Shown here: positions 3,246 through 44,018 of the stretch, piece by piece
How the letters are laid out: each line of letters opens with the position of its first letter
Numbering within the stretch: the first letter of the stretch is position 1
Sequence record: NC_047806.1
Direction: 5' to 3' (one strand)
DNA from: Escherichia phage vB_EcoP_B
Length of the DNA stretch: 44,018 nt
The notes under the pieces: model-generated
Told to the model about the DNA's origin: nothing
Seen by the model: the letters and a program-made list of their open reading frames with translations, nothing else
Database searches by the model: none
Position numbers and translations under genes: made by a program

Positions 3246-3716
3246 TTAAATATCCTCATCAATACATTCGTGACGATGCTTCTGGAATAGCTCTTTGTAG
3301 TAGTCTGCTTTCTTCAGATCTTCTTCCGTGTTGAATTTCTTCCCTGCACGCAGACGATACTTCAAAGCATTACCCATGCAATATCCAGCAAATTGCTTCT
3401 CGGTCATACTACGAGCAATGATAGTGATTGCCTCTACCCCATCGAAGAACTCGTAGTGCTTAGGCTTAGTAACCATATTGTTGTCCAACGTGCTAGGATC
3501 TTCACCTTGCAATGAGTCAACAACCTTGAAGTAAGGTGCATACCATTCGCGCTTCTCAACACCTTCTAACATGATAGAGTTATAATTAGGTTCTGCACGG
3601 GATACTTTGAATACCCCATCTGGTTTCTTGTCTAGGCTTTCACACAGTTTATTCCAGATGGCATCTCGGTAAGCTGCACGGCGTACGACGTATTCGCCAA
3701 TATAAATCTTTGACAT
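3246..3716 (-). CDS. hypothetical protein (156 aa), possibly DUF3310-like
   Basis: ORF track 3246..3731 trimmed to ATG 3714-3716 with GGAGGA SD; KPKHY...GNALKYRLRAGKK pattern (family assignment from memory, weak). Confidence 0.5.
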   Translation of the reverse strand: MSKIYIGEYVVRRAAYRDAIWNKLCESLDKKPDGVFKVSRAEPNYNSIMLEGVEKREWYAPYFKVVDSLQGEDPSTLDNNMVTKPKHYEFFDGVEAITIIARSMTEKQFAGYCMGNALKYRLRAGKKFNTEEDLKKADYYKELFQKHRHECIDEDI

Positions 3717-6822: not shown

Positions 6823-6939
6823 AATTCATTCTCCAATAACTATTACGCAAAAGACCCTGCCTACACTAAGGCAGACAGGGCATTAGATGAGGTGAGCGTG
6901 ATAGTCAACTAGGACTAACAGAGGCTACACCTGCTATTA

Positions 6940-7363: not shown

Positions 7364-7384
7364 CTTCTATAGTGTCCAGTAAAT
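7364..7384 (-). promoter_or_regulatory. phage RNAP promoter
   Basis: ATTTACTGGACACTATAGAAG. Confidence 0.7.
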
Positions 7385-16223: not shown

Positions 16224-16244
16224 ATCCTATAGTGTCCGGTAAAT
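16224..16244 (-). promoter_or_regulatory. phage RNAP promoter (first after RNAP gene)
   Basis: ATTTACCGGACACTATAGGAT. Confidence 0.6.
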
Positions 16245-19912: not shown

Positions 19913-19976
19913 AATAGTCACCTTATATAGTGGTAAGTAAATATCACATAGCCCACACAGGCAGGCTATAGGCTAG

Positions 19977-22320: not shown

Positions 22321-22847
22321 GAGTGAACGGAGCGCAAGCGGAGTGAGGAGCAGTGAGTGAAGCGTAGCGAAACGAACAGATAGCCCACACCCTCATGCCC
22401 TGTCAAACGCTCAGGAATGGCCCTAAAACGGCCTGTGTAAGCCCTAAGCGGTTGCACTAAGGCAATCACCTTGTCCAATACTAAGGCGCGCCCTAGCGCT
22501 TCCTAGGTGTTCTCCTTGTGCAGCCACTAAGAGCAGACCTCGGCAAGCTCTAGGCCACCCGTCGAGCTTCCTGCGGCAGCAGGTTGAAGACGGACCAGCC
22601 CAGCCCAATTCCCAAGCCAACCGCAGCGCGGCCCCATATGGGGGAAATCCGGCGAGGGCGAGGGCGAGAGAGCTGACACACGCCTATATCAAAATTTTGA
22701 CTTTGGTTACTTTGTGACCACCTTTGGTCTGCCCTTTTGGTTACACTAAGATTATTCCTGCTAAGTACAGGTACACCAGCAGTGGGCCATAGATACATGC
22801 TGTGCATAAGAGGGCTAACAGTAGGTCTTTCATGTTACCTCATTTGA

Positions 22848-23196: not shown

Positions 23197-25632
23197 TTAA
23201 CTGGTTTTATTAGTGGCATACATCTCCTCTAACTTGTCTAAACGATAACGAGTATAAGCAGCCTCCAAGATTAAGATTTCACTATATCTAACACCAAACT
23301 GACCTTCTTCGAAGGAGACAATGCCGAAGTCGATTGCATCTAACCCTTCGGATGCAAAAGCAGCTACAATGTCTTGTGCCAATACACCAAAGTGAGTGTG
23401 ATGCACACCACTAGACATCTCTCCAATCAACTTGTACTGCTTGAAGGCAACCTTGCCCCATGCCTTTAGTACACCCTCATCAATACCTTGTGATCCATAC
23501 TTATGAGTGGCATCAGACGTAATAATAGGGTCACTTGTAAGATGGATAGTAGTGAATCTATTACGAGGGCCGCCAGCAGGATACACGTTATCATTGTATG
23601 GCATGATAGCCCCGCTTTGGAACAAGTGCTCATTGGCATTATATACTGCGCGTCTAGAAGTACTAGAACCTGCTCCATGTAAGGTAATTTGCGCACCGGT
23701 ATCTGCTGCTGTACCCTCTCCACCAGAGATGATGACACGTTGGGCAGTTGGGTTATCCGTTGGTATAGTCTTACCAATGAACCCATATTCACCTTCCATC
23801 AGCATCTCTGAGCGAATATTAGCACTTGTACTTGCCTTCAGGGTAAGGTGTTCGACAGTCATATCTGCGGCAACTACCTCTCCTGATAAGTGAAGTGGAG
23901 CAGGAATAGTACGAATACCATCAGTACCCATGAAGGTAGGTATAGCCTGACCCGGAGTTGCACCATATGTAAACTTACGAGATACACGATTGTCATTTGC
24001 AATCTGCATCTTATAGCAGTATATATCAGTGGGGTGTCCATGACCTTTAAATGGGTCTTTATCTTTGTTGTCACCATAAGTCATTGGGTTGAAATGGTTT
24101 TCTCCACCAAAGATATAGTAAATGTAGCTGTCTTTAACTACTACCGAACCTACACCTACACTAGAGTTCACAATGTCACCCTGATAGATTTGGTCTGTGA
24201 TGTTAACCCATTCAATGTCATCTGCATTCCACTTGTTTACATTCAATCGTGCATAGAAGGTACGAGGATAAGATGCCTTGTAACGATCATCGGGTGCACC
24301 TGCTTCCCATTCATTTTCTGCACGTTCTGAACCAAACATAATAAGGTCATCTCCTACTTTAGCAAAAGGTAAGGTAGTATGATGAACATTATGTGGAAAT
24401 CTTAGTGACTCCCAAGTTTGACCTATATCTCTACTACGATGCAGAGAGCTTCCTAGTCGATCGCCACGAGTACCACGAGTGATAAGGTACAATACACCGT
24501 CATAGTACTTGATGCATGGCTCTGCCGCATCTGGTTCATACTCAGATGGTATCTGACGACGAACATAATTAGATGGGCTATTGAAAGCATCAGGGAAGTA
24601 GAAAAGCCCAACTTCTCGTGGAGCTACATCACCTTGATGATAGCCCATAACAAAGCCATTGTTATCAATAGTAGCAAAGCTATGCACCTCTGTGACACGA
24701 GTGATTAGACCAAGATCTGTCTTACGCCAAGGAGATTTATGGAAAGAAGTACCCATGTGCCAACTCTTTCCAGCGTTATTCAAATCTGAAGTCTGCTGGT
24801 TAGGTGTAAGAACCGTGAAGTTGTCCTTATCTATTACTGTTGCAACCTTCATATCACCAGATACACCTGTTACCGCAGAGTTAGAGAAGTTAACAAAATC
24901 ACCAACGAAGAGTCCGTGATCAGGTACATGGATTGTTGCATATCTCTGATTTGCAGCCTTAGTGATACCACCAGTAAGATGCAGACTACGAGACATAGGG
25001 CGATCCCACAATGCACAATTGGTTAGTGCGTTCTTGGCTAAAGTACGTGTTTCAATCATGGCAAACAGACGGTTGCGACATACACCCATACTCATACAAT
25101 GATAGTTCACTGTAGGGTAATCTGGATGCAGATCAGTTAACCACTCTGGAGTAGACCATGTTTGACCATCGTCACCAGACTTAACCCATGATACATGCAG
25201 ACGACTAACACCATGACGGTCGCTACCCATGTAAGGTGCATATATCACGTTCTCATATACAAACGCTTTGTCTTGAGGCCAAGCATTGTAATAAGGGTTA
25301 TCCGTGATTTTATAGAGTTCACCATTGATAAAACCTTTACTCACATAGTAAAGAGGTTGACCTGCTAAACGTTCCCATACGAAGCGGGTGTTATAGAATC
25401 GCTCCATATCAGGTAAAGATGATACTTTGTAAGTAGCACCAGCACCGTCAATTCTCTTACCTGAAGCCATCGCTGCATTTACTGCATCTTGGTCGTTTGT
25501 CTTACCATCACCTTTGGCTCCAAAATCTTTAAGCGATACAACCTCGGTGAGCTTGTCATCCAAGTTACGCCAGATTGCACCTGCTATTTTACTCTTGAAT
25601 TTAACTAATGAAGAACCTAGTCTTTGAATCAT
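23197..25632 (-). CDS. tailspike with endosialidase (endo-N-acetylneuraminidase) catalytic domain, 811 aa
   Basis: ORF track; two sialidase Asp-boxes SGDDGQTW and SRDIGQTW; C-terminal chaperone-like segment; AAAGGAGG SD; last structural gene before genome end as in K1E/K1-5-type phages (from memory). Confidence 0.8.
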   Translation of the reverse strand: MIQRLGSSLVKFKSKIAGAIWRNLDDKLTEVVSLKDFGAKGDGKTNDQDAVNAAMASGKRIDGAGATYKVSSLPDMERFYNTRFVWERLAGQPLYYVSKGFINGELYKITDNPYYNAWPQDKAFVYENVIYAPYMGSDRHGVSRLHVSWVKSGDDGQTWSTPEWLTDLHPDYPTVNYHCMSMGVCRNRLFAMIETRTLAKNALTNCALWDRPMSRSLHLTGGITKAANQRYATIHVPDHGLFVGDFVNFSNSAVTGVSGDMKVATVIDKDNFTVLTPNQQTSDLNNAGKSWHMGTSFHKSPWRKTDLGLITRVTEVHSFATIDNNGFVMGYHQGDVAPREVGLFYFPDAFNSPSNYVRRQIPSEYEPDAAEPCIKYYDGVLYLITRGTRGDRLGSSLHRSRDIGQTWESLRFPHNVHHTTLPFAKVGDDLIMFGSERAENEWEAGAPDDRYKASYPRTFYARLNVNKWNADDIEWVNITDQIYQGDIVNSSVGVGSVVVKDSYIYYIFGGENHFNPMTYGDNKDKDPFKGHGHPTDIYCYKMQIANDNRVSRKFTYGATPGQAIPTFMGTDGIRTIPAPLHLSGEVVAADMTVEHLTLKASTSANIRSEMLMEGEYGFIGKTIPTDNPTAQRVIISGGEGTAADTGAQITLHGAGSSTSRRAVYNANEHLFQSGAIMPYNDNVYPAGGPRNRFTTIHLTSDPIITSDATHKYGSQGIDEGVLKAWGKVAFKQYKLIGEMSSGVHHTHFGVLAQDIVAAFASEGLDAIDFGIVSFEEGQFGVRYSEILILEAAYTRYRLDKLEEMYATNKTS

Positions 25633-27810: not shown

Positions 27811-29707
27811 AATAAGTCCTTGAAATCCTTGCAGAAAGTGTATTTCTGCTTGCCGATTTACTCCTGTAATTCTGACCGTATACTCTTTGCTGCATAGCCA
27901 CGGAAGTGTTGGTTACTCTTCGCTCAGTGCCATAATCTCCATAGAGCATTGCCCTACGGAGGTGAGGTGTGTTCATAGCATGGATGTAATCGCGCATCTC
28001 CTGCGCTCTGAGGCGATTAATCCGTGTAACCTCGTCATAGTCTATCTGAGAAGTTAATTGCCGTATAGCGCCATACAGAGCGTCTAAGCGGTCATCGTGT
28101 CGTAGGCTGTTCTTCTCAATCGTGATGTTCGACATTTGATTGAAAAGGCTGTATGACATGCGTAGTTCAAGCGGATAGTGCTGTACCGACTCAAAATCAG
28201 ACTTGACCATCTCTGCGTTGAAGATGAGCCTGTGGGCCGCCATTAGTGGCTCTAGTGTTTCAATGATACGCAACTCTTTCTGTCCGGTGGCGTAATCTTC
28301 CTCCAGAGTCACAGGCCACTCTCGTTCAAAGTATGGCTTTATAACGGCCTCAAACGCGCCATGACCAAAGTTCTTTTCAATGAATACCTCTTTAACACCT
28401 GCCTGCTTTGCGGCCTGCACAATGCGATTCAGGGACGATTCGCGGTATCCTCCCGGAACACCAAAGCACTGATACACATAAATGAATGTGCCGTGCAGGA
28501 AGACGATAGACACACCCGTTTCATCCCCGTTCTTACCGCCACCTGCGGGGTCAATATACATAATCTTTCGGGTAACAGCACCCCACTCATAAGGTCGGGC
28601 CACAGGGCGATACATAAAGTCTGTAGGCTTATTGCCATACTTCGGTGCATCGCCAATGATGTTAATAGAGTCGTTGCTCCATGTAGGCATCACAGGGACT
28701 TCCTCTGTACCGAATGAAGTGAAGATGAGGTTGTTCAGGCGTAGTGGATAGCGGTCAGCATCCATCATGCGAGTGTTAAGCATAAACTGAAGCTGGAACT
28801 TAGCCGCACCCTGCGAGATTTCCTTCTCGATCAGCACATCATCATCATACATTTCAGGTGCACAAGGTGCACCACTATTGCCATCCAAGCCATACCCTGA
28901 GCGAAGTGCTGGGTTGTCCTTCATATCCTGCACAATCATAGGTGCAAGGAAGTCACCATAGCATTGCTCCTGCTCCACTGAGGGATAACGTGCAGTCCAG
29001 ATACGAACAGAGTAACCACGAGCAGGTAGGTTATTGTAGATAGAGTTTACGTTCTGAGGAGTACCAAGGTAGATAATATCACCAAACTGGTTAATAGATT
29101 CAAACTCCTTGGTCAGTTCCTCAAGCAAGGCACGTCCTGCCGCTGTACGAGCATTCTGCATTGACTCAACGTCATCTGCTAGGATGATATCTGCACGCGC
29201 ACCCTGCATACCTGCTTCGATTGAGTAACAAGACACAGAAGGCGACTTGTCACTGCCACGTAGGGTGTAATGAATCTCAAATGCCTTAACTGAGGCACGG
29301 TCCCCTGCGTAGATGTCCGGTAGCATAAACTCAAGAAAGTCTAGGCCACGGAAGATTTTAACTACCCAACCTGCGATTTCCTCTGCTCGCTTGGCGTTTT
29401 GGGATACTACCATGATACGCTTATGGGGTTCATGGATGATACGGAAAACAGTATAGATTGCTGATAGTGTAGTTTTAGCGATACCACGGGGCGCTTCGAT
29501 GAGGCGATATTTATGTCCATAGAATAGAAACTTTAAAATATCGGCCTGCATACGAATCAGATGAGGGTTGCCTGCAATCAAGTTATGGATAACTGTATCT
29601 GCAAAGAGAAGCAAACCTTCCGCCGTATACTGAAAAGTCTGCTGTAACTCCTGTAGCATCTCCCATCTGGCAAGAGCCTCCGCTTGTGATTCTCTTGCCT
29701 TAGCCAT
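27809..29707 (-). CDS. terminase large subunit (gp19-like), about 632 aa
   Basis: ORF track 27809..29710 (TTG) trimmed to ATG with CTAAGGAGG SD; Walker A-like PRGIAKTT; size and position. Confidence 0.8.
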   Translation of the reverse strand: MAKARESQAEALARWEMLQELQQTFQYTAEGLLLFADTVIHNLIAGNPHLIRMQADILKFLFYGHKYRLIEAPRGIAKTTLSAIYTVFRIIHEPHKRIMVVSQNAKRAEEIAGWVVKIFRGLDFLEFMLPDIYAGDRASVKAFEIHYTLRGSDKSPSVSCYSIEAGMQGARADIILADDVESMQNARTAAGRALLEELTKEFESINQFGDIIYLGTPQNVNSIYNNLPARGYSVRIWTARYPSVEQEQCYGDFLAPMIVQDMKDNPALRSGYGLDGNSGAPCAPEMYDDDVLIEKEISQGAAKFQLQFMLNTRMMDADRYPLRLNNLIFTSFGTEEVPVMPTWSNDSINIIGDAPKYGNKPTDFMYRPVARPYEWGAVTRKIMYIDPAGGGKNGDETGVSIVFLHGTFIYVYQCFGVPGGYRESSLNRIVQAAKQAGVKEVFIEKNFGHGAFEAVIKPYFEREWPVTLEEDYATGQKELRIIETLEPLMAAHRLIFNAEMVKSDFESVQHYPLELRMSYSLFNQMSNITIEKNSLRHDDRLDALYGAIRQLTSQIDYDEVTRINRLRAQEMRDYIHAMNTPHLRRAMLYGDYGTERRVTNTSVAMQQRVYGQNYRSKSASRNTLSARISRTY

Positions 29708-30006
29708 CAATCCTCCTTAGTGAATTGGATGATCTTGCCACTTGATGCCTCTCGGATAGCCTTGAGGCGCTTAGATAGCTTGGACTCCTCCTGCTGTGCA
29801 GCGGGTGTAGCGGTAATACCATTATCAAGAACCCACTTACACATAGCTCCAATGTCTTTACCAGAGACTAAATGCAGTGCTGCATCTGGGTCTTCTTCTA
29901 TAGTGTCCAGTATTGCCTGTGCTTTCTTATTAAAGATTTTGGTAATAGCACCATGTAGAATGCCAACCTCGTCTTCCGTAGCTGCATGTTTATTGTGTAC
30001 GCTCAT
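29707..30006 (-). CDS. terminase small subunit (gp18-like), about 99 aa
   Basis: ORF track 29707..30051 trimmed to ATG 30004-30006 with GGAGGAGG SD; position between holin and large terminase. Confidence 0.55.
   Translation of the reverse strand: MSVHNKHAATEDEVGILHGAITKIFNKKAQAILDTIEEDPDAALHLVSGKDIGAMCKWVLDNGITATPAAQQEESKLSKRLKAIREASSGKIIQFTKED
29895..29915 (-). promoter_or_regulatory. phage RNAP promoter-like sequence inside small terminase gene
   Basis: CAATACTGGACACTATAGAAG (5' end diverged). Confidence 0.45.
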
Positions 30007-34512: not shown

Positions 34513-34528
34513 AGCCTTGAGTTAGGTA

Positions 34529-38199: not shown

Positions 38200-40601
38200 T
38201 AGACCCTCCTTTTGGTTGGATTGTAGCTCCCTTCCCACTCAATATCGCGGAGCTGGAATGTGTGAGGTGATTCTACAATAATACGATAAACAGCATCCGT
38301 ACTCTTAGCTCTCAGTGGGAATCTGAAGACACCTTCTCTTGGTTCAACATAACCTACTGTATTGTTGAGAGCACCACCTATACGGTTTGACGCTAGCACC
38401 CTGCGTACTTTACCACTCTTCACATTCTTAACCTCCACGGAGAAATCAGGATACATATCAAGATTAAGGTGAACCAACCCCACAACAGGTACATCAATAT
38501 AGGATACACGGTCTTGCCTATCTCTGATAACTACAGGTGTTGGTTCAAACTCTTGAGGGTAAATCTGACCAACAATAACCTTCGCTTTTACGTGGCTATC
38601 ATCATGCATATCAAAGGTTGTAGACAAGGTGTTATCACCGGGATTATATTTGAATAGGAAAGAACCACCAATATATGAATCCCACCCGTCTATTAAGATG
38701 CAATCCAAAAGCTCTGGGTTAGTAGGAGTCCAAGGAAGCGGTTCAGACACCCATTCATCTTCTGCTTTAAAATGCTTGAAGACTAACTCTGCTTGCCTAT
38801 CCATCCTAATGCGGTCATTCAAACCATAGGTTAATGCATCACCCATGTCCATCTTCTCCAGATATACGCCATCCCCTCGCTCAAGGAGTAGGTAAAGTAA
38901 TTCACCAGAATAAAATAGACCTCGCACCTTTGTACCTACAGGCCACTTCCATACATGCCATGCTGATTGTACACGGTCTGTTCCTTGCCATAACCAATCA
39001 TAGCAGTAGATTATGTTACGGTACTTATCGGTAGTGACAAGTAACCTGTTGACATTGGTGCTTGCTGCCATGTTGGTAATGTTACCTTCGATGAGTTTAT
39101 TCACATGACTTGTGATTGCTTGTGCCTTCTTAGTGTCACTATAAGAGTCTGTATAGAACTCTCGTACACCAGAGTAATAACCATCATTAGTGGCAAACAT
39201 TACCGATTCACCAGTTACTACTGGCTTCACTTTATTGTTCACTTCAAATGTTGTAACAGGCTTAAGCAATGCATTTGACTTCTCTAAAGGCTTATCGCCT
39301 GGCAGTATGAATTGTGACTTATCAGAGAACAATACGGTAGCTCCATCTAAGGTCACTGCATGTTTTAGCTGGTAAACTTCACTCGCATCTGAGAAAATAT
39401 CAAATGGGTCAGTTGCCAATGCAGAGATAACCGTATAACGAAAGAAATCGAAGAAATATGATGTACGAGAAGCAATAACCGCTTCACCTGCTGTAAAGCA
39501 TAGGCGGTTCTGCACCATGAACATTCCACCTATTGTCTGGGGTACTTCCTCATCAATAAAAGAGGGCATAGGGTTAGTCAAGTCATCCCCTACTTTACGG
39601 TCTTCCCAATCCCCTTGTCTTATCTTGAATTGAGCTATGCCGTCAATGATACCTGTACGTTCAATAATGTAAGGCATTGTGCCTTTATCAAACCCAAGTA
39701 ATACATCAGCAGCTATTGTTTCTTTCCAAGACACAAGGTTTCCCTCTTTAGGCTCAGCTTGCAGCCAGTAACGAGACTCAGGTTTGCTGCCAGTAGGCCA
39801 CACTTGTACTTTATAACCAGCAGGCGCACGAGAAGGGAGTAGGTCAGTAGAGCTAACTTTATTCTTGATAGCCACTAAGTCCTTACCTTTTGCACCATCG
39901 GTAGTTGTTACTGTGAAACTTTTACCATCGCGTCTCTCTATAAATATGCTCGTACCATCTCTTTGTATTTCATAGTCATTCACACCACTCCATTGCTGCA
40001 ACTTGGAGTACAATTCAGAAGTGATACGTTCCGTTCGTATTTGTTCAACATGTTCTGCACTTCCCCCATCTGGTGTTTTAAAACTAGCAGCTGTAGTTCC
40101 ATTAATTATGATAGAATAAGATGTACCGTATTGACCATATGCACAAAACACAATGGCTTTATCTCCAACTTTAGGTGACTTCCTATTACTAACTTTAACC
40201 ACTTTCCTACGGTTAAGCATAAAAGTAACATCAGCTATAGTCATGAATTGCACATCTTCCCTAGGGTTAACAACTTCAGAAAGGTAGGTCATAGGTGCAT
40301 CTTGAGAGGTGACATTGCACTTGCGTCCATGCTTATCAAATATCTCTGGCACTTGCCCCTTCTTTAAGGTGAAGAAATACTCTTCATCCCCCTCACCCCT
40401 GCGATAATGGTGCGTTGCCATATTATCTGTACCTTCATCCAAGAGCTTAGCAATGTGAGTTGTACCCATGCGGGATTGAGTCCCATTCACTACATCAGGG
40501 ACCATGTTCACCATAGTCGTACATTGGCCATCAAGACGTACCGCTGGTGGTTGCTGGCTAATCCCTTGGATTTGCCTCCCTAATGAACCTTGTACTTCCA
40601 T
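38199..40601 (-). CDS. tail tubular protein B (gp12-like), about 800 aa
   Basis: ORF track 38199..40631 (TTG) trimmed to ATG with GGGAGGA SD; size like T7 gp12 (794 aa); position. Confidence 0.7.
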   Translation of the reverse strand: MEVQGSLGRQIQGISQQPPAVRLDGQCTTMVNMVPDVVNGTQSRMGTTHIAKLLDEGTDNMATHHYRRGEGDEEYFFTLKKGQVPEIFDKHGRKCNVTSQDAPMTYLSEVVNPREDVQFMTIADVTFMLNRRKVVKVSNRKSPKVGDKAIVFCAYGQYGTSYSIIINGTTAASFKTPDGGSAEHVEQIRTERITSELYSKLQQWSGVNDYEIQRDGTSIFIERRDGKSFTVTTTDGAKGKDLVAIKNKVSSTDLLPSRAPAGYKVQVWPTGSKPESRYWLQAEPKEGNLVSWKETIAADVLLGFDKGTMPYIIERTGIIDGIAQFKIRQGDWEDRKVGDDLTNPMPSFIDEEVPQTIGGMFMVQNRLCFTAGEAVIASRTSYFFDFFRYTVISALATDPFDIFSDASEVYQLKHAVTLDGATVLFSDKSQFILPGDKPLEKSNALLKPVTTFEVNNKVKPVVTGESVMFATNDGYYSGVREFYTDSYSDTKKAQAITSHVNKLIEGNITNMAASTNVNRLLVTTDKYRNIIYCYDWLWQGTDRVQSAWHVWKWPVGTKVRGLFYSGELLYLLLERGDGVYLEKMDMGDALTYGLNDRIRMDRQAELVFKHFKAEDEWVSEPLPWTPTNPELLDCILIDGWDSYIGGSFLFKYNPGDNTLSTTFDMHDDSHVKAKVIVGQIYPQEFEPTPVVIRDRQDRVSYIDVPVVGLVHLNLDMYPDFSVEVKNVKSGKVRRVLASNRIGGALNNTVGYVEPREGVFRFPLRAKSTDAVYRIIVESPHTFQLRDIEWEGSYNPTKRRV

Positions 40602-41338
40602 TAACGATCCTCCCACGGACGAAGTGCCCAACTGTCATATGGTGAATGAGAGTAAGCAGGTACATTCTGAGAACCACCTGCCATAATACCGAACTGACGC
40701 TGCGTAGGATTATGCACAAGCATATTCAATCGCTTTTGTGACATTTGTTCTGATTGCACATCCATTAGAAGCTGAGTGGCAATCTGCTGTGCAGTGGCTA
40801 GCTTAGTCTGATCTGCATCCTTAGACACAATAAACTCTACAGCAGCTTGATAGGCAATAGCCTGCATTACACTAGTAGGTAGATGCTCATATGGAAGTAA
40901 GGTAAGTAAGGTAAGACGAATCATACCATTAGCATTCACATGCTTACGCATATCAAAGGTATGACTCCATGTAGAGTAGAGCTTACCTGCTCGCATAGTC
41001 ATGGGTACTTTCTTCTCACCCAAAGCATAACACTGCAATACTGCTAGGCAGTTGTTAGGTAGATTGACTTCACCATTGGTATCAGGTGCAATCTGCCAGT
41101 TTGGTTCACGATTGAACCACCAGCCACCTCCTTTGTTGTACTGGAATCGCTGGGATACGATGTCGATCATCTTGCTTGCATCTTCTGCGTCCAAGTCACC
41201 TGAGTCGAGAGAATCCACACCCTCACGACCAATAGCTCGCATACACAAGTTTACCGCTTCCAGCTTACTATCAATAATCTGGAAGGCCACATCTTCCATC
41301 ATATGACCTACTTTACTGGTTTGTCTAATTACAGGCAT
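40601..41338 (-). CDS. tail tubular protein A (gp11-like), about 245 aa
   Basis: ORF track 40601..41389 trimmed to ATG 41336-41338 with AGGAGGG SD; the track's extra 17 codons are the terminator hairpin/T-run; GGGWWFN resembles T7 gp11 GWTFN. Confidence 0.65.
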   Translation of the reverse strand: MPVIRQTSKVGHMMEDVAFQIIDSKLEAVNLCMRAIGREGVDSLDSGDLDAEDASKMIDIVSQRFQYNKGGGWWFNREPNWQIAPDTNGEVNLPNNCLAVLQCYALGEKKVPMTMRAGKLYSTWSHTFDMRKHVNANGMIRLTLLTLLPYEHLPTSVMQAIAYQAAVEFIVSKDADQTKLATAQQIATQLLMDVQSEQMSQKRLNMLVHNPTQRQFGIMAGGSQNVPAYSHSPYDSWALRPWEDR

Positions 41339-41349
41339 GAACCCTCCTA

Positions 41350-41386
41350 ACAAAAAAAGAACCCTACCTACGCAAGGTAGATAGGG
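41350..41386 (-). terminator. intrinsic terminator after capsid gene (T-phi analog)
   Basis: 10-bp stem CCCUAUCUAC/GUAGGUAGGG with 5-nt loop followed by UUCUUUUUUUG; overlaps leader/SD of tail tube A. Confidence 0.6.
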
Positions 41387-41394
41387 CATAGGTA

Positions 41395-42600
41395 TTACTC
41401 AGCAGGTTTCATTGCAGTCGGCTTAATGTCATTAGCCATCACTGCACGAACAGCAGCAACCAAATCTTCAGCAGGCAAGCTAGCAGCGGCAGCAGCACCT
41501 GCCGGGGCAGCATTCTTGACGTATACAGCTTTACGCTGTGCACGGTTCAGAACCTGAGTGTGCTGTGCTCCACCAGTACCCTCAGCCTCCCCAGTAGATG
41601 TGCTACGCTTAGTTGTCACAACAGACACTGCTTCCCATCGATCAGGGATTGCACCTTCAGACATGAAAGTATCAATGTAGTAGGTCTTCTCTTTCTTCTC
41701 ATAGAAGATATCACCGGTTACATCAATAGAACGACCCACAAGCAGAGCGTCAGATGTGAACAGTACAGCGATAGCACCATTCATCTCTGCGGTCGGGTCA
41801 TAACGATAACCGTTGTCTTCATTGGACAGCAGGTGATGTTTCTGACCCTGAGAGAATTTAGGGAAGCGGTTAGACGGGATAACAGGACAGTTGTAAGAAG
41901 ACAGAACAAAACCATGAATGGTTGCACCGGACTGGCTGATGGTGTAGCTCTTGTCAACGATACGGTCTGCATCACGCAGTACGTTGAAGTAGCGCCACGG
42001 CATCAGGATAGCTACATCAGAGATGTCTACTTCCTGCTCAAGCTGCTGCTCCAGAGCAAACTCTACAGCCGCCATTACATACTGCGGGTTAACCAGTGCT
42101 TCGCTTTCATTGACCTCCACGTTGACAGAGAAGCCATGACCTTTCACACGAGGGTTAGTACGCTTAGCCTGAGTGTTAGCAATACCACCCAGCAGCATCT
42201 GCTGAATCAGCATTTCATCTTCCATCTTCTTAAGCTGCTTAGCTTGGTTGGTAGCCAGCTTAGGTTTCAGGCTGTCAATATCACCCTGTACATCATGCAG
42301 GTGTGCAACGGTGTTACGAGCAATAACAGTGGCATCAATTACCAGCTGGTTTTTATCGGCCTGAGTAGAGGTTGCAGCCGGAGACTGACCCGGTGCCAGA
42401 ACCTGCAACTCTGTTTCACCCAAGTATTTGTTGCTTACCGTGTTAGTACCAGTAACAGTCTGAACATCGAAGTAGGACATGATGTTCTCACCTTTCAGGT
42501 ACTGCTCATTTACCTTACCATTGAATTTCTCAATGAGCAGGCTGTCTACCTCACCGGAAGCGGAGACTGCAACGTTGGTCAGAGTGTTCGGTGTAGACAT
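41395..42600 (-). CDS. major capsid protein (401 aa)
   Basis: ORF track; strongest SD in window AAGGAGG; promoter 42651-42671 upstream; terminator immediately downstream; size typical of SP6-group capsid. Confidence 0.8.
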   Translation of the reverse strand: MSTPNTLTNVAVSASGEVDSLLIEKFNGKVNEQYLKGENIMSYFDVQTVTGTNTVSNKYLGETELQVLAPGQSPAATSTQADKNQLVIDATVIARNTVAHLHDVQGDIDSLKPKLATNQAKQLKKMEDEMLIQQMLLGGIANTQAKRTNPRVKGHGFSVNVEVNESEALVNPQYVMAAVEFALEQQLEQEVDISDVAILMPWRYFNVLRDADRIVDKSYTISQSGATIHGFVLSSYNCPVIPSNRFPKFSQGQKHHLLSNEDNGYRYDPTAEMNGAIAVLFTSDALLVGRSIDVTGDIFYEKKEKTYYIDTFMSEGAIPDRWEAVSVVTTKRSTSTGEAEGTGGAQHTQVLNRAQRKAVYVKNAAPAGAAAAASLPAEDLVAAVRAVMANDIKPTAMKPAE

Positions 42601-42650: not shown

Positions 42651-42671
42651 CTTCTATAGTGTCCAGTAAAT
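42651..42671 (-). promoter_or_regulatory. phage RNAP promoter (capsid promoter)
   Basis: ATTTACTGGACACTATAGAAG between scaffold and capsid genes. Confidence 0.75.
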
Positions 42672-42676
42672 ACTGA

Positions 42677-43597
42677 TTAAAGTCCGCGAGCCATACCAGC
42701 GCGGCGGCGAGCATCCAGTCTAGCCTGATACTCAGCAGCAGCTTTCTTGTCTGTGCCGAAGCGAGAGCTAAGGGTCATCATCTCACGCAGGTACTGCTCA
42801 CGCGAGAGTGGGCCGTTGTCTTCTGATGCGGCAGCAGGTGCAGATGGTTCAATCAGGCTTGGCTTGTCATCACCTTGTGCAGCCTTACGGCGGCTCTCCA
42901 GTTCACGCACAGCGTATTGCTGAAGGTACTGGTTGCCAGACCCCATCACCGCATTGAATGCCATTAGTTCGTCATCAGACAGCGCTTCAAGTGCCCACGC
43001 CTCAAGACGGGACCACCCTTCTTCACCACCAATTTCCTTAGAAACATCAGAGAAGCGTTGGGTATTAGCTGCTTCCAACTCTTTAGCTGCGTTGGCTTCT
43101 TTTAGGAAGAAGGCTTCATTTTGAGCCTTAAGGCCTGACAGGTAAGCATCTACCGCAAACTTGCCAAAAGCATCATACAGTTTCTGCTTGGTTGCATCAG
43201 ACAGCTCAAACTTGCCATCTTTGGCATAGAGTTCCTTGGCAACCTGCTTAGCATCAATACCTTTCTCTTTAAGGCTATCAGTAACATCCTGTGGTATATC
43301 TACTGTTACTTCATAGTCTCCGAAGAAGTATTGCACTTCCTCAGTGTCGGTCGTGGTATCATCTGGCTTAGATTCACCATTCTCTCCGTCATTGTCTCTC
43401 GCTTCTGAAGGTTGTCCAGAAGTTTCTCCTCTGGTGTCTTCAGCAGATTGTGTACTAGCATTGTCATCTTGTACATTAGTTCTAGTATCAGCATGAACAT
43501 CATTAGTAGTAGCATCAGTTGATACCTCCTTGGTTTCTACCGGATTGTCTTCAGCAATAGGATGAGTGGTTGACGGTTCAGTAAATGAGAAAGACAT
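42677..43597 (-). CDS. scaffolding protein (gp9-like), 306 aa
   Basis: ORF track; acidic helical protein between portal and capsid; AAGGAGG SD. Confidence 0.65.
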   Translation of the reverse strand: MSFSFTEPSTTHPIAEDNPVETKEVSTDATTNDVHADTRTNVQDDNASTQSAEDTRGETSGQPSEARDNDGENGESKPDDTTTDTEEVQYFFGDYEVTVDIPQDVTDSLKEKGIDAKQVAKELYAKDGKFELSDATKQKLYDAFGKFAVDAYLSGLKAQNEAFFLKEANAAKELEAANTQRFSDVSKEIGGEEGWSRLEAWALEALSDDELMAFNAVMGSGNQYLQQYAVRELESRRKAAQGDDKPSLIEPSAPAAASEDNGPLSREQYLREMMTLSSRFGTDKKAAAEYQARLDARRRAGMARGL

Positions 43598-44018
43598 TAC
43601 GCCTCCTTAAGTTCTTGTTGAATTACACCCGGAATGGCCTTAGCCACACCCTCTTCAAGCATCTGTGCTTGCTGTGCTTGCATCTGCGCTTCCTGTTCTT
43701 GCTCCATCTCTTCAGTCGATTTAAGGAATGGCAGTTCAGCAGAGATTTGACCACGTACCCAATCCATGTAATCAGGCCACTTCACAGCAGCTAGGACAGG
43801 CTCAGGCCATTGCAAAGGCAGTGACATGTACTGAGCGAAGTTTGCCAGCTTATCCAGTTCAGCCATGCGCCCTAATGCTTCAATGCCTGTGATAATCACA
43901 GGGTCAACTAGGTCACTAGTGAATGAATCACCTGCCTCCAGCAGACCCCACATCGCTACTGGCGATTGCATAGTAGTAGCAAAGAGGGAATATACACCGC
44001 CCATGTTCTGCTCAATCT
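43597..44018 (-). CDS. portal protein, C-terminal about 140 codons; partial, 5' part is at the window start
   Basis: ORF track 43597..44004; frame open to window end; GGVYS...TGIEALGRMAELDKL resembles T7 gp8 C-terminal region. Confidence 0.75.
   Translation of the reverse strand, partial: IEQNMGGVYSLFATTMQSPVAMWGLLEAGDSFTSDLVDPVIITGIEALGRMAELDKLANFAQYMSLPLQWPEPVLAAVKWPDYMDWVRGQISAELPFLKSTEEMEQEQEAQMQAQQAQMLEEGVAKAIPGVIQQELKEA

Follow-up and report, generated by a model that had tools for sequence, protein, structure and literature searches.

Between its genes for the major capsid protein and tail tubular protein A, Escherichia phage vB_EcoP_B very probably carries a class I intrinsic terminator, a hairpin followed by a U-tract, that serves the phage's own single-subunit RNA polymerase (RNAP). 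We place the probability of this reading, under which the element is orthologous to t5, a terminator of phage SP6, and corresponds in position to Tphi of phage T7, at roughly 0.9. The assignment to class I reflects a stable hairpin on the sense strand, a U-tract immediately 3' of it, and a genome that encodes the cognate RNAP and has one of this enzyme's promoters upstream of the site.

The window, that is, the whole stretch of 44,018 nucleotides analysed here (NC_047806.1), is a near-complete Vectrevirus genome (Autographiviridae, Molineuxvirinae; K1E/K1-5/SP6 group), and over the region of interest it shares 99% identity with Escherichia phage vB_EcoP_C and 94% with K1E. Both of its ends (1 to about 1130 and 43597-44018) apparently fall within the gene for the head-tail connector, or portal, whose C-terminal 135 aa are encoded at 44004-43597, ahead of the scaffold gene. 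If so, the window shows a genome of ~44 kb in reverse complement and circularly permuted; elsewhere its gene order matches that of SP6 and K1E. The single-subunit RNAP is encoded by an ORF at 18964-16340 (875 aa; PF00940, E = 7e-89, and PF14700) and is 85% identical to SP6 RNAP.

The terminator lies on the - strand, which is the coding strand for all genes in this part of the window. The major capsid gene (41395..42600, - strand; 401 aa; phrog_267 major head protein, E = 3e-98, and capsid in homologous records) ends with a TAA stop codon at 41397-41395, and the stem starts 9 nt past it. A 10-nt 5' arm, CCCTATCTAC (41386-41377), is joined by the 5-nt loop CTTGC (RNA CUUGC; 41376-41372) to a 10-nt 3' arm, GTAGGTAGGG (41371-41362), giving ten pairs, one of which is U.G. 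An 11th, the closing pair G41387.U41361, begins eight nt past the stop codon and extends the arms to GCCCUAUCUAC (41377..41387) and GUAGGUAGGGU (41361..41371), as judged by sequence reading, folding and pairing across homologues. After the stem come T41360, C41359, a run of seven T residues (41358-41352) and G41351, which together make up the U-rich tract UCUUUUUUUG (41351..41360). The order on the - strand is thus hairpin, UUCUUUUUUUG (the same tract, written differently), the Shine-Dalgarno sequence AGGAGG of the tail tubular A gene (41343..41348, invariant in an alignment of 12 homologues), and ATG at 41338-41336. A first-pass annotation of this DNA had described a 10-bp stem, a 5-nt loop and a U7 run 9-45 nt after the capsid stop codon, and on the - strand each of these values is exact.

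Folding energy, which the same annotation had proposed as a check, also favors a real structure. The 41-nt element folds at -16.4 kcal/mol (z = -4.7), none of 200 dinucleotide shuffles folds as well, and the terminator fold accounts for 87% of the ensemble. The antisense RNA folds more weakly (-12.2 kcal/mol), its stem is interrupted by a mismatch, and the A-run falls on the wrong side, so the signal is strand-specific. Other searches around the element returned little. In Rfam, no family matched 41200-41500 above its threshold (scan at E <= 10), the best of the chance matches being NsiR1 at 15.6 bits where 39 was required; sigma-70-like promoter matches near the terminator were at chance level; and the class II signal ATCTGTT was not found in or near the terminator, its only coding-strand copies being at 22381 and 18488. 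The GenBank records of SP6, K1-5, K1E, vB_EcoP_C, vB_EcoP_D and mutPK1A2 were searched for "terminator" features, and none is annotated.

The first-pass annotation had the hairpin overlapping the translation start region of the tail tubular A gene. That is so only for a mis-called start: the ORF list gives a 262-aa ORF from 41389, opening MPYLPCVGRVLFLLGGF before it continues MPVIRQ..., while the real Shine-Dalgarno sequence begins 2 nt past the final G of the U-tract. The terminator abuts the real translation-initiation region and does not overlap it. The gene itself occupies 40601..41338 (- strand; 245 aa; Pfam PF17212 Tube, E = 1.4e-57; homologues of 738-741 nt), with its true start fixed at 41338 and not at 41389, and the 17 codons in front of it (41339..41389, - strand) are an artefact of longest-ORF calling. 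The annotation had itself recognized them as the translated hairpin and T-run, and rightly, given that homologues start downstream and the upstream ATG is in frame in 7 of 31 relatives only.

It is exceedingly unlikely that the upstream ATG at 41389 is real, either as the start of a 17-residue extension or of a small upstream ORF, with the hairpin regulating translation. The triplet is invariant just 5' of the stem in 31 of 31 homologous capsid-terminator sequences, and in the window it is in frame with the tail gene, both of which would suit such a role. Yet its frame is set by the length of the T-run, and the distribution among relatives (seven in frame, 12 in +1 and 12 in +2) is that of chance, with one of the seven in-frame relatives carrying internal stop codons. 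Moreover, changes in the stem are compensatory in the RNA and not conservative in the protein, AGGAGG precedes 41338 whereas no comparable Shine-Dalgarno sequence precedes 41389, the deposited annotations of homologues all use the downstream ATG, and in the short form the Pfam Tube domain does not start before residue 26. The AUG at 41389-41387 is no usable start codon, and its invariance in all 31 sequences has no evident reason.

How far the terminator stands out from chance depends on the test applied. A generic terminator scan of the region found 8 sites where 6.8 were expected from shuffles, which is no enrichment; the capsid-end site, with 11 pairs, ranked at the top. A stricter scan for hairpins of at least 10 bp with a T-rich tail found six sites on the coding strand and one on the other strand, against an expectation of ~0.5 per strand derived from 60 shuffles. 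Because the generic scan is unenriched, the pattern class by itself is weak evidence, and the strength of the case lies in stem length, covariation and orthology.

Conservation was assessed in homologous intergenic regions from 25 IMG/VR contigs, whose tail-tube proteins range from 100% to 66% identity, and from six GenBank genomes (K1E, vB_EcoP_C, vB_EcoP_D, mutPK1A2, SP6 and K1-5). A hairpin and T-run occupy the capsid-end spot in every homologous locus recovered, and the hairpin is conserved in 30 related loci. Among 12 distinct homologous sequences, 98.5% of stem cells are standard pairs, and five of the 11 stem pairs have undergone compensatory (double) changes. The covariation score is 0.394, compared with 0.011-0.134 in controls that shift the 3' partners by 1-3 columns. 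Compensatory changes and covariation above the slid controls indicate that the structure is under selection as RNA. The loop varies freely among relatives. By contrast, the U.G wobble at stem pair 7 (41381/41367) is invariant in all 12 distinct variants while the adjacent pairs covary.

All relatives carry a T-run of at least four at this terminator, and its length differs from phage to phage: U4 in SP6-like phages, U5 in K1E, K1-5 and mutPK1A2, U6 in three contigs, U7 in the window and U13 in vB_EcoP_D. vB_EcoP_C has U13 as well, together with a 9-nt duplication, GTAGGGTTC, between hairpin and T13, and its extended stem still adjoins the U-run. These length differences and the duplication could be genuine adjustments of read-through, or else errors made in sequencing or assembling a homopolymer. 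Short repeats occur within the stem (CTAT/CTAC in the 5' arm, GTAG-GTAG in the 3' arm), and this repetitiveness probably lies behind the vB_EcoP_C duplication.

The most direct evidence for function comes from SP6. Song et al. (2024, NAR; PMC11347151) studied termination by the T7, T3 and SP6 RNAPs in single-molecule assays, using for SP6 a template in which the P8 promoter was joined to the class I terminator t5. Their supplementary oligo SP6-B, labelled class I terminator t5, reads AAGCCGACCGAGGAATAACCTATGCCCTATCTACCTTGCGTAGGTAGGGTTCTTTTGTTTAGGAGGATTCATGCCTGTAATTC... and corresponds to the SP6 intergenic region between the capsid and tail tubular A genes, from SP6 23697 onward. The window hairpin is identical to that of SP6 t5 at 25 of 25 nt. 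The two also share the 5' flank CCUAUG and the start of the tail, UUCUUUU (counted as the first 10 nt), the Shine-Dalgarno sequence and start context that follow, and the syntenic arrangement of capsid gene, terminator and tail tubular A. They differ in the U-tract, which is UUCUUUUUUUG in the window and UUCUUUUGUUU in the SP6 t5 that was assayed, and in their hosts, the window being a Vectrevirus on E. coli K1 and SP6 a Zindervirus on Salmonella. SP6 RNAP stops at t5 with an efficiency of 85.3 +/- 2.2% and at nearly a single site, whereas T7 RNAP stops there at only 16.2% (PMC11347151).

The wider terminator complement fits as well. SP6 has seven RNAP terminators according to PMC11347151, which cites Scholl 2004 and Dobbins 2004, and the genome paper on the SP6-like phage UAB_Phi78 reports that a terminator follows the capsid gene there, just where SP6 has one (PMC4837284). 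Hairpins with T-rich tails occur in SP6, in genome order, at 3332, 6034, 8543, 14733 and 23697, the capsid site being fifth; in the window they occur in genome order at 19970, 16329, 13656, 6881 and 41387, the last again fifth, followed by 34516 and 27717. Judged by its sequence, then, the capsid-end element is the Vectrevirus orthologue of the characterized SP6 t5, an already known and ordinary kind of element. We infer that the window's RNAP behaves at this site as SP6 RNAP does at t5, and the exact 3' end and the efficiency in vivo likewise.

The SP6 measurements bear on two other ways of reading the hairpin. It could be a stability element for an mRNA 3' end or intercistronic region, or a processing signal, that does not terminate the phage polymerase, and a stable, conserved hairpin right after a highly expressed gene would be well placed for such a role; T7-group genomes do have RNase III sites between late genes, for example R13 (bioRxiv 10.1101/106799). 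We consider this very improbable, as the identical SP6 hairpin stops purified SP6 RNAP at 85% with no other factor present (PMC11347151), and the conserved U-tract would be superfluous in a pure stability hairpin. For RNase III in particular the 11-bp stem is too short. A canonical substrate of this enzyme needs about two helical turns. A site of the T7 R type, a duplex of ~20 bp usually with an internal loop, was considered and rejected on the same grounds: the stem has 11 bp here and at most about 12 bp in most relatives, and a longer, bulged stem of about 16 bp is found only in vB_EcoP_C, as a result of its 9-nt duplication. Stabilization of the message by its terminated 3' end would be consistent with a terminator and no substitute for it.

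Alternatively, the element might be a rho-independent terminator relevant only to the host E. coli RNAP. The architecture is that of bacterial intrinsic terminators, and genome papers predict the site with bacterial terminator finders. This too merits very little credence. The site is found well inside the late region, behind a strong phage promoter. In T7-group genomes, as established for T7, transcription by the host polymerase is confined to the early region. Furthermore, the contrast between SP6 RNAP (85%) and the non-cognate T7 RNAP (16%) at the identical hairpin points to adaptation to the cognate phage enzyme.

The promoters around the terminator bear on its likely role. Eleven exact-core phage promoters are present in the window, all on the - strand, with the consensus ATTTACTGGACACTATAGAAG. 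The capsid-gene promoter, of SP6/K1E type and with this consensus as its sequence, lies at 42651..42671 (- strand) and attains the top score of 36.2 against a position weight matrix (PWM) built from the window's own promoters, the real ones scoring at least 28.5. The +1 position, a G at 42654, precedes the terminator by 1.27 kb, and the transcript opens with GAAGGGAGAAAU. In SP6 the corresponding promoter is P8, the SP6 site at 22422 matching the P8 oligo (PMC11347151, Table S1). Within the window the transcript start GAAGGGAG belongs to the capsid promoter alone (42654-42643); SP6 P8 starts in the same way (GAAGGGAGG, SP6 22430 onward), and the GGGAGA with which transcripts from T7 phi10 begin resembles it. 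The next promoter downstream of the terminator is at 29895..29915 (- strand), and the PWM scan of the coding strand from 42662 to 29906 found none in between, the best score being 5.8.

The block beyond the terminator is thus devoid of promoters for 11.4 kb (41338 to about 30194). It contains the genes for tail tubular A (PF17212), nozzle protein B (PF25675) and the internal virion proteins, and a following gene of 321 aa. Without a promoter over this distance, the tail tubular, internal-virion and 321-aa genes must be transcribed by read-through, and because essential tail genes depend on it, termination must by inference be partial, in agreement with the ~15% read-through at SP6 t5. The earlier suggestion of partial termination is supported by this reasoning. 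In SP6 the corresponding block is ~5.7 kb, the next exact-core promoter being at 29402; given the longer block, the tail and internal-virion genes of the window depend on read-through more heavily than those of SP6 or T7.

The proposed sequence of events is simple. Late transcription would begin at the capsid promoter (+1 at 42654) or at some point before it and cross the capsid gene, and as 41387-41351 is transcribed the nascent RNA would form the hairpin of 11 bp immediately adjoining the U-tract. Release of most elongation complexes would follow around 41352-41351, where the 3' end of the terminated RNA should fall by comparison with T7 Tphi, at which release occurs at the G after U6. As the predicted end precedes the Shine-Dalgarno sequence by 2-3 nt, the product would be an abundant capsid mRNA with a protective 3' hairpin and without the ribosome-binding site of the next gene. 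A minority of polymerases (~15% in vitro at the SP6 orthologue) would read through, and their RNA would be the sole mRNA for tail tubular A and B, the internal virion proteins and the next gene. The terminator would in this way provide a transcriptional step-down from the most abundant virion protein to the low-copy tail and core proteins. The first-pass annotation went further in suggesting that it sets the capsid-to-tail stoichiometry. A step-down of about 6-fold may well contribute, but "setting" overstates the matter, since such a step cannot alone yield the much larger ratio of capsid to tail-tube protein.

Could read-through be regulated? One version of this idea would have the hairpin act as an attenuator, countered by an antiterminator pairing. 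The repetitiveness of the stem does allow a register-shifted, 9-bp alternative pairing with the 5' flank, which an inverted-repeat finder detected as UACCUAUGC (41394-41386) with GCGUAGGUA (41373-41365). This pairing is nonetheless minor in an ensemble dominated by the terminator fold and, by inspection, is not kept in the distant relatives L020-L027, where flanks and arms change without compensation. The other version invokes G-rich abortive transcripts (GAAGGG...) that would pair with the C and U residues of the 5' arm and raise read-through late in infection. Abortive transcripts demonstrably antiterminate at Tphi in T7 (PMC2952870), and the capsid promoter has a transcript start comparable to those of SP6 P8 and T7 phi10. 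That said, GAAGGG and the 5' arm CCCUAUC share only 4 bp of complementarity, which keeps the probability of antitermination low; C+U stretches of 5-6 nt are needed in T7 (PMC2952870). Regulated attenuation of either kind is accordingly a slim prospect.

A second terminator in the window appears to be related to the one at the capsid end. It lies at 6854..6881 on the - strand (-18.3 kcal/mol, z = -4.0) and reads GCCCUGUCUGC-CUUAGU-GUAGGCAGGGU followed by CUUUUG, or, as DNA, GCCCTGTCTGC-CTTAGT-GTAGGCAGGGT plus CTTTTG. Presumably it is the counterpart of SP6 t4, and it is nearly identical in SP6 and in the K1E-like contigs L030-L052. The two elements have in common the stem base GCCCYRUC/GGYRGGGY, the U.G wobble at pair 7, a short U-tract ending in G, and a position after a short gene directly behind a strong phage promoter, here at 7375. 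The wobble is kept in nearly every relative of both terminators even though neighboring pairs covary. They differ in the top of the stem and the loop, and in location: the t4 counterpart belongs to the DNA-metabolism region, where it follows the gene for a 123-aa protein whose function is unknown (phrog_4429). Moreover, the 5' AUG flank that is invariant at the capsid terminator is not so among relatives of the t4 counterpart. Concerted evolution of t4 and t5 within a genome was considered and set aside: similar loops occur in L026/L051 only, and not in L025/L037, L020/L049 or L023/L052.

It is conceivable, though we regard it as rather unlikely, that t4 and t5 form a polymerase-specific sequence family, marked by the stem base and the unrepaired wobble at pair 7 and, in t5, by the AUG flank, in which termination depends partly on sequence being read, and, separately, that the U-tract acts as an evolutionary dial for read-through. 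A sequence-read component in class I termination of the SP6 type, if true, would fit the 85% efficiency of SP6 RNAP against 16% for T7 RNAP. A U-tract dial, if true, would mean that U-tracts of 4, 5, 6, 7 or 13 among phages otherwise 94-99% identical adjust read-through into the 11-kb block.

A further repeat family in the window consists of four copies of the palindrome TGTCTCA(C/T)ATGTGAGACA on the - strand, at 34516, 13656, 16263-16248 and 16081-16066. Two of the copies form 13-bp hairpins with weak T-rich tails, one between two large internal-virion genes and one after the primase/helicase gene; these, at 34516 and 13656, are probably the counterparts of SP6 t6 and t3. The remaining two, which are short, directly precede the promoters at 16235 and 16051.

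The main value of the terminator finding is for annotation, and by itself it raises no new biological question. It marks the boundary between a very highly expressed capsid message and a long, promoter-less block of tail and internal-virion genes, and it suggests that a property measured in SP6, ~85% termination by the cognate RNAP, may be transferred to a genus of K1-capsule-specific coliphages used in phage therapy and engineering. For engineering, inserts placed downstream of the terminator would be expressed at the read-through level only, and the hairpin itself is a candidate terminator part specific to SP6-type RNAPs.

Among known systems, T7 offers the closest parallel outside the SP6 group. 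In the T7 reference record Tphi is at 24210, the G after T6, between gene 10 (end 24162) and gene 11 (start 24228), and the next promoter, phi13, comes only after gene 12. The T7 sequence runs from the stop codon through the hairpin, UUUUUUG, 6 nt and AAGGAGG to ATG, which is the layout of the window (stop codon, hairpin, U-tract ending in G, Shine-Dalgarno sequence, ATG). Tphi of T7, like that of T3, has the corresponding location, preceded by the capsid gene and followed by promoter-less tail tubular genes, and belongs to the same class, being a factor-independent class I terminator of a single-subunit RNAP. T7 genes 11 and 12 are expressed only through read-through at Tphi (PMC2952870; bioRxiv 10.1101/106799). 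Calling the window's element a Tphi-like terminator, as the first reading of this DNA did, is apt with respect to position and layout, and its terminator character is supported by the 25/25 hairpin identity to SP6 t5, which terminates SP6 RNAP at 85.3%.

The differences from T7 are nevertheless considerable. The two elements show no sequence similarity, and with about 15 bp and -28 kcal/mol the stem in T7 is the longer one; it is also irregular inside. SP6-type genomes have seven terminators of this kind against one in T7; T7 restarts transcription at phi13, two genes on, whereas the block in the window extends for 11.4 kb. The T7 capsid is made in 10A and 10B forms by frameshifting, which the window capsid cannot be. 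A 10B-like product running through the hairpin was looked for: the -1 frame meets TGA at 41401-41399, while stops interrupt the +1 frame inside the final 15 codons, and with both alternative frames closed a frameshift extension of the capsid is excluded. Bacterial rho-independent terminators, finally, have the same GC-rich hairpin with a U-tract directly attached, and are found by the same pattern scanners. The difference is that the element in the window would be used by a phage single-subunit RNAP, and single-molecule work indicates that phage RNAPs release their transcripts by a one-step, "decomposing" mode, as opposed to the dual modes of the bacterial enzyme (PMC11347151).
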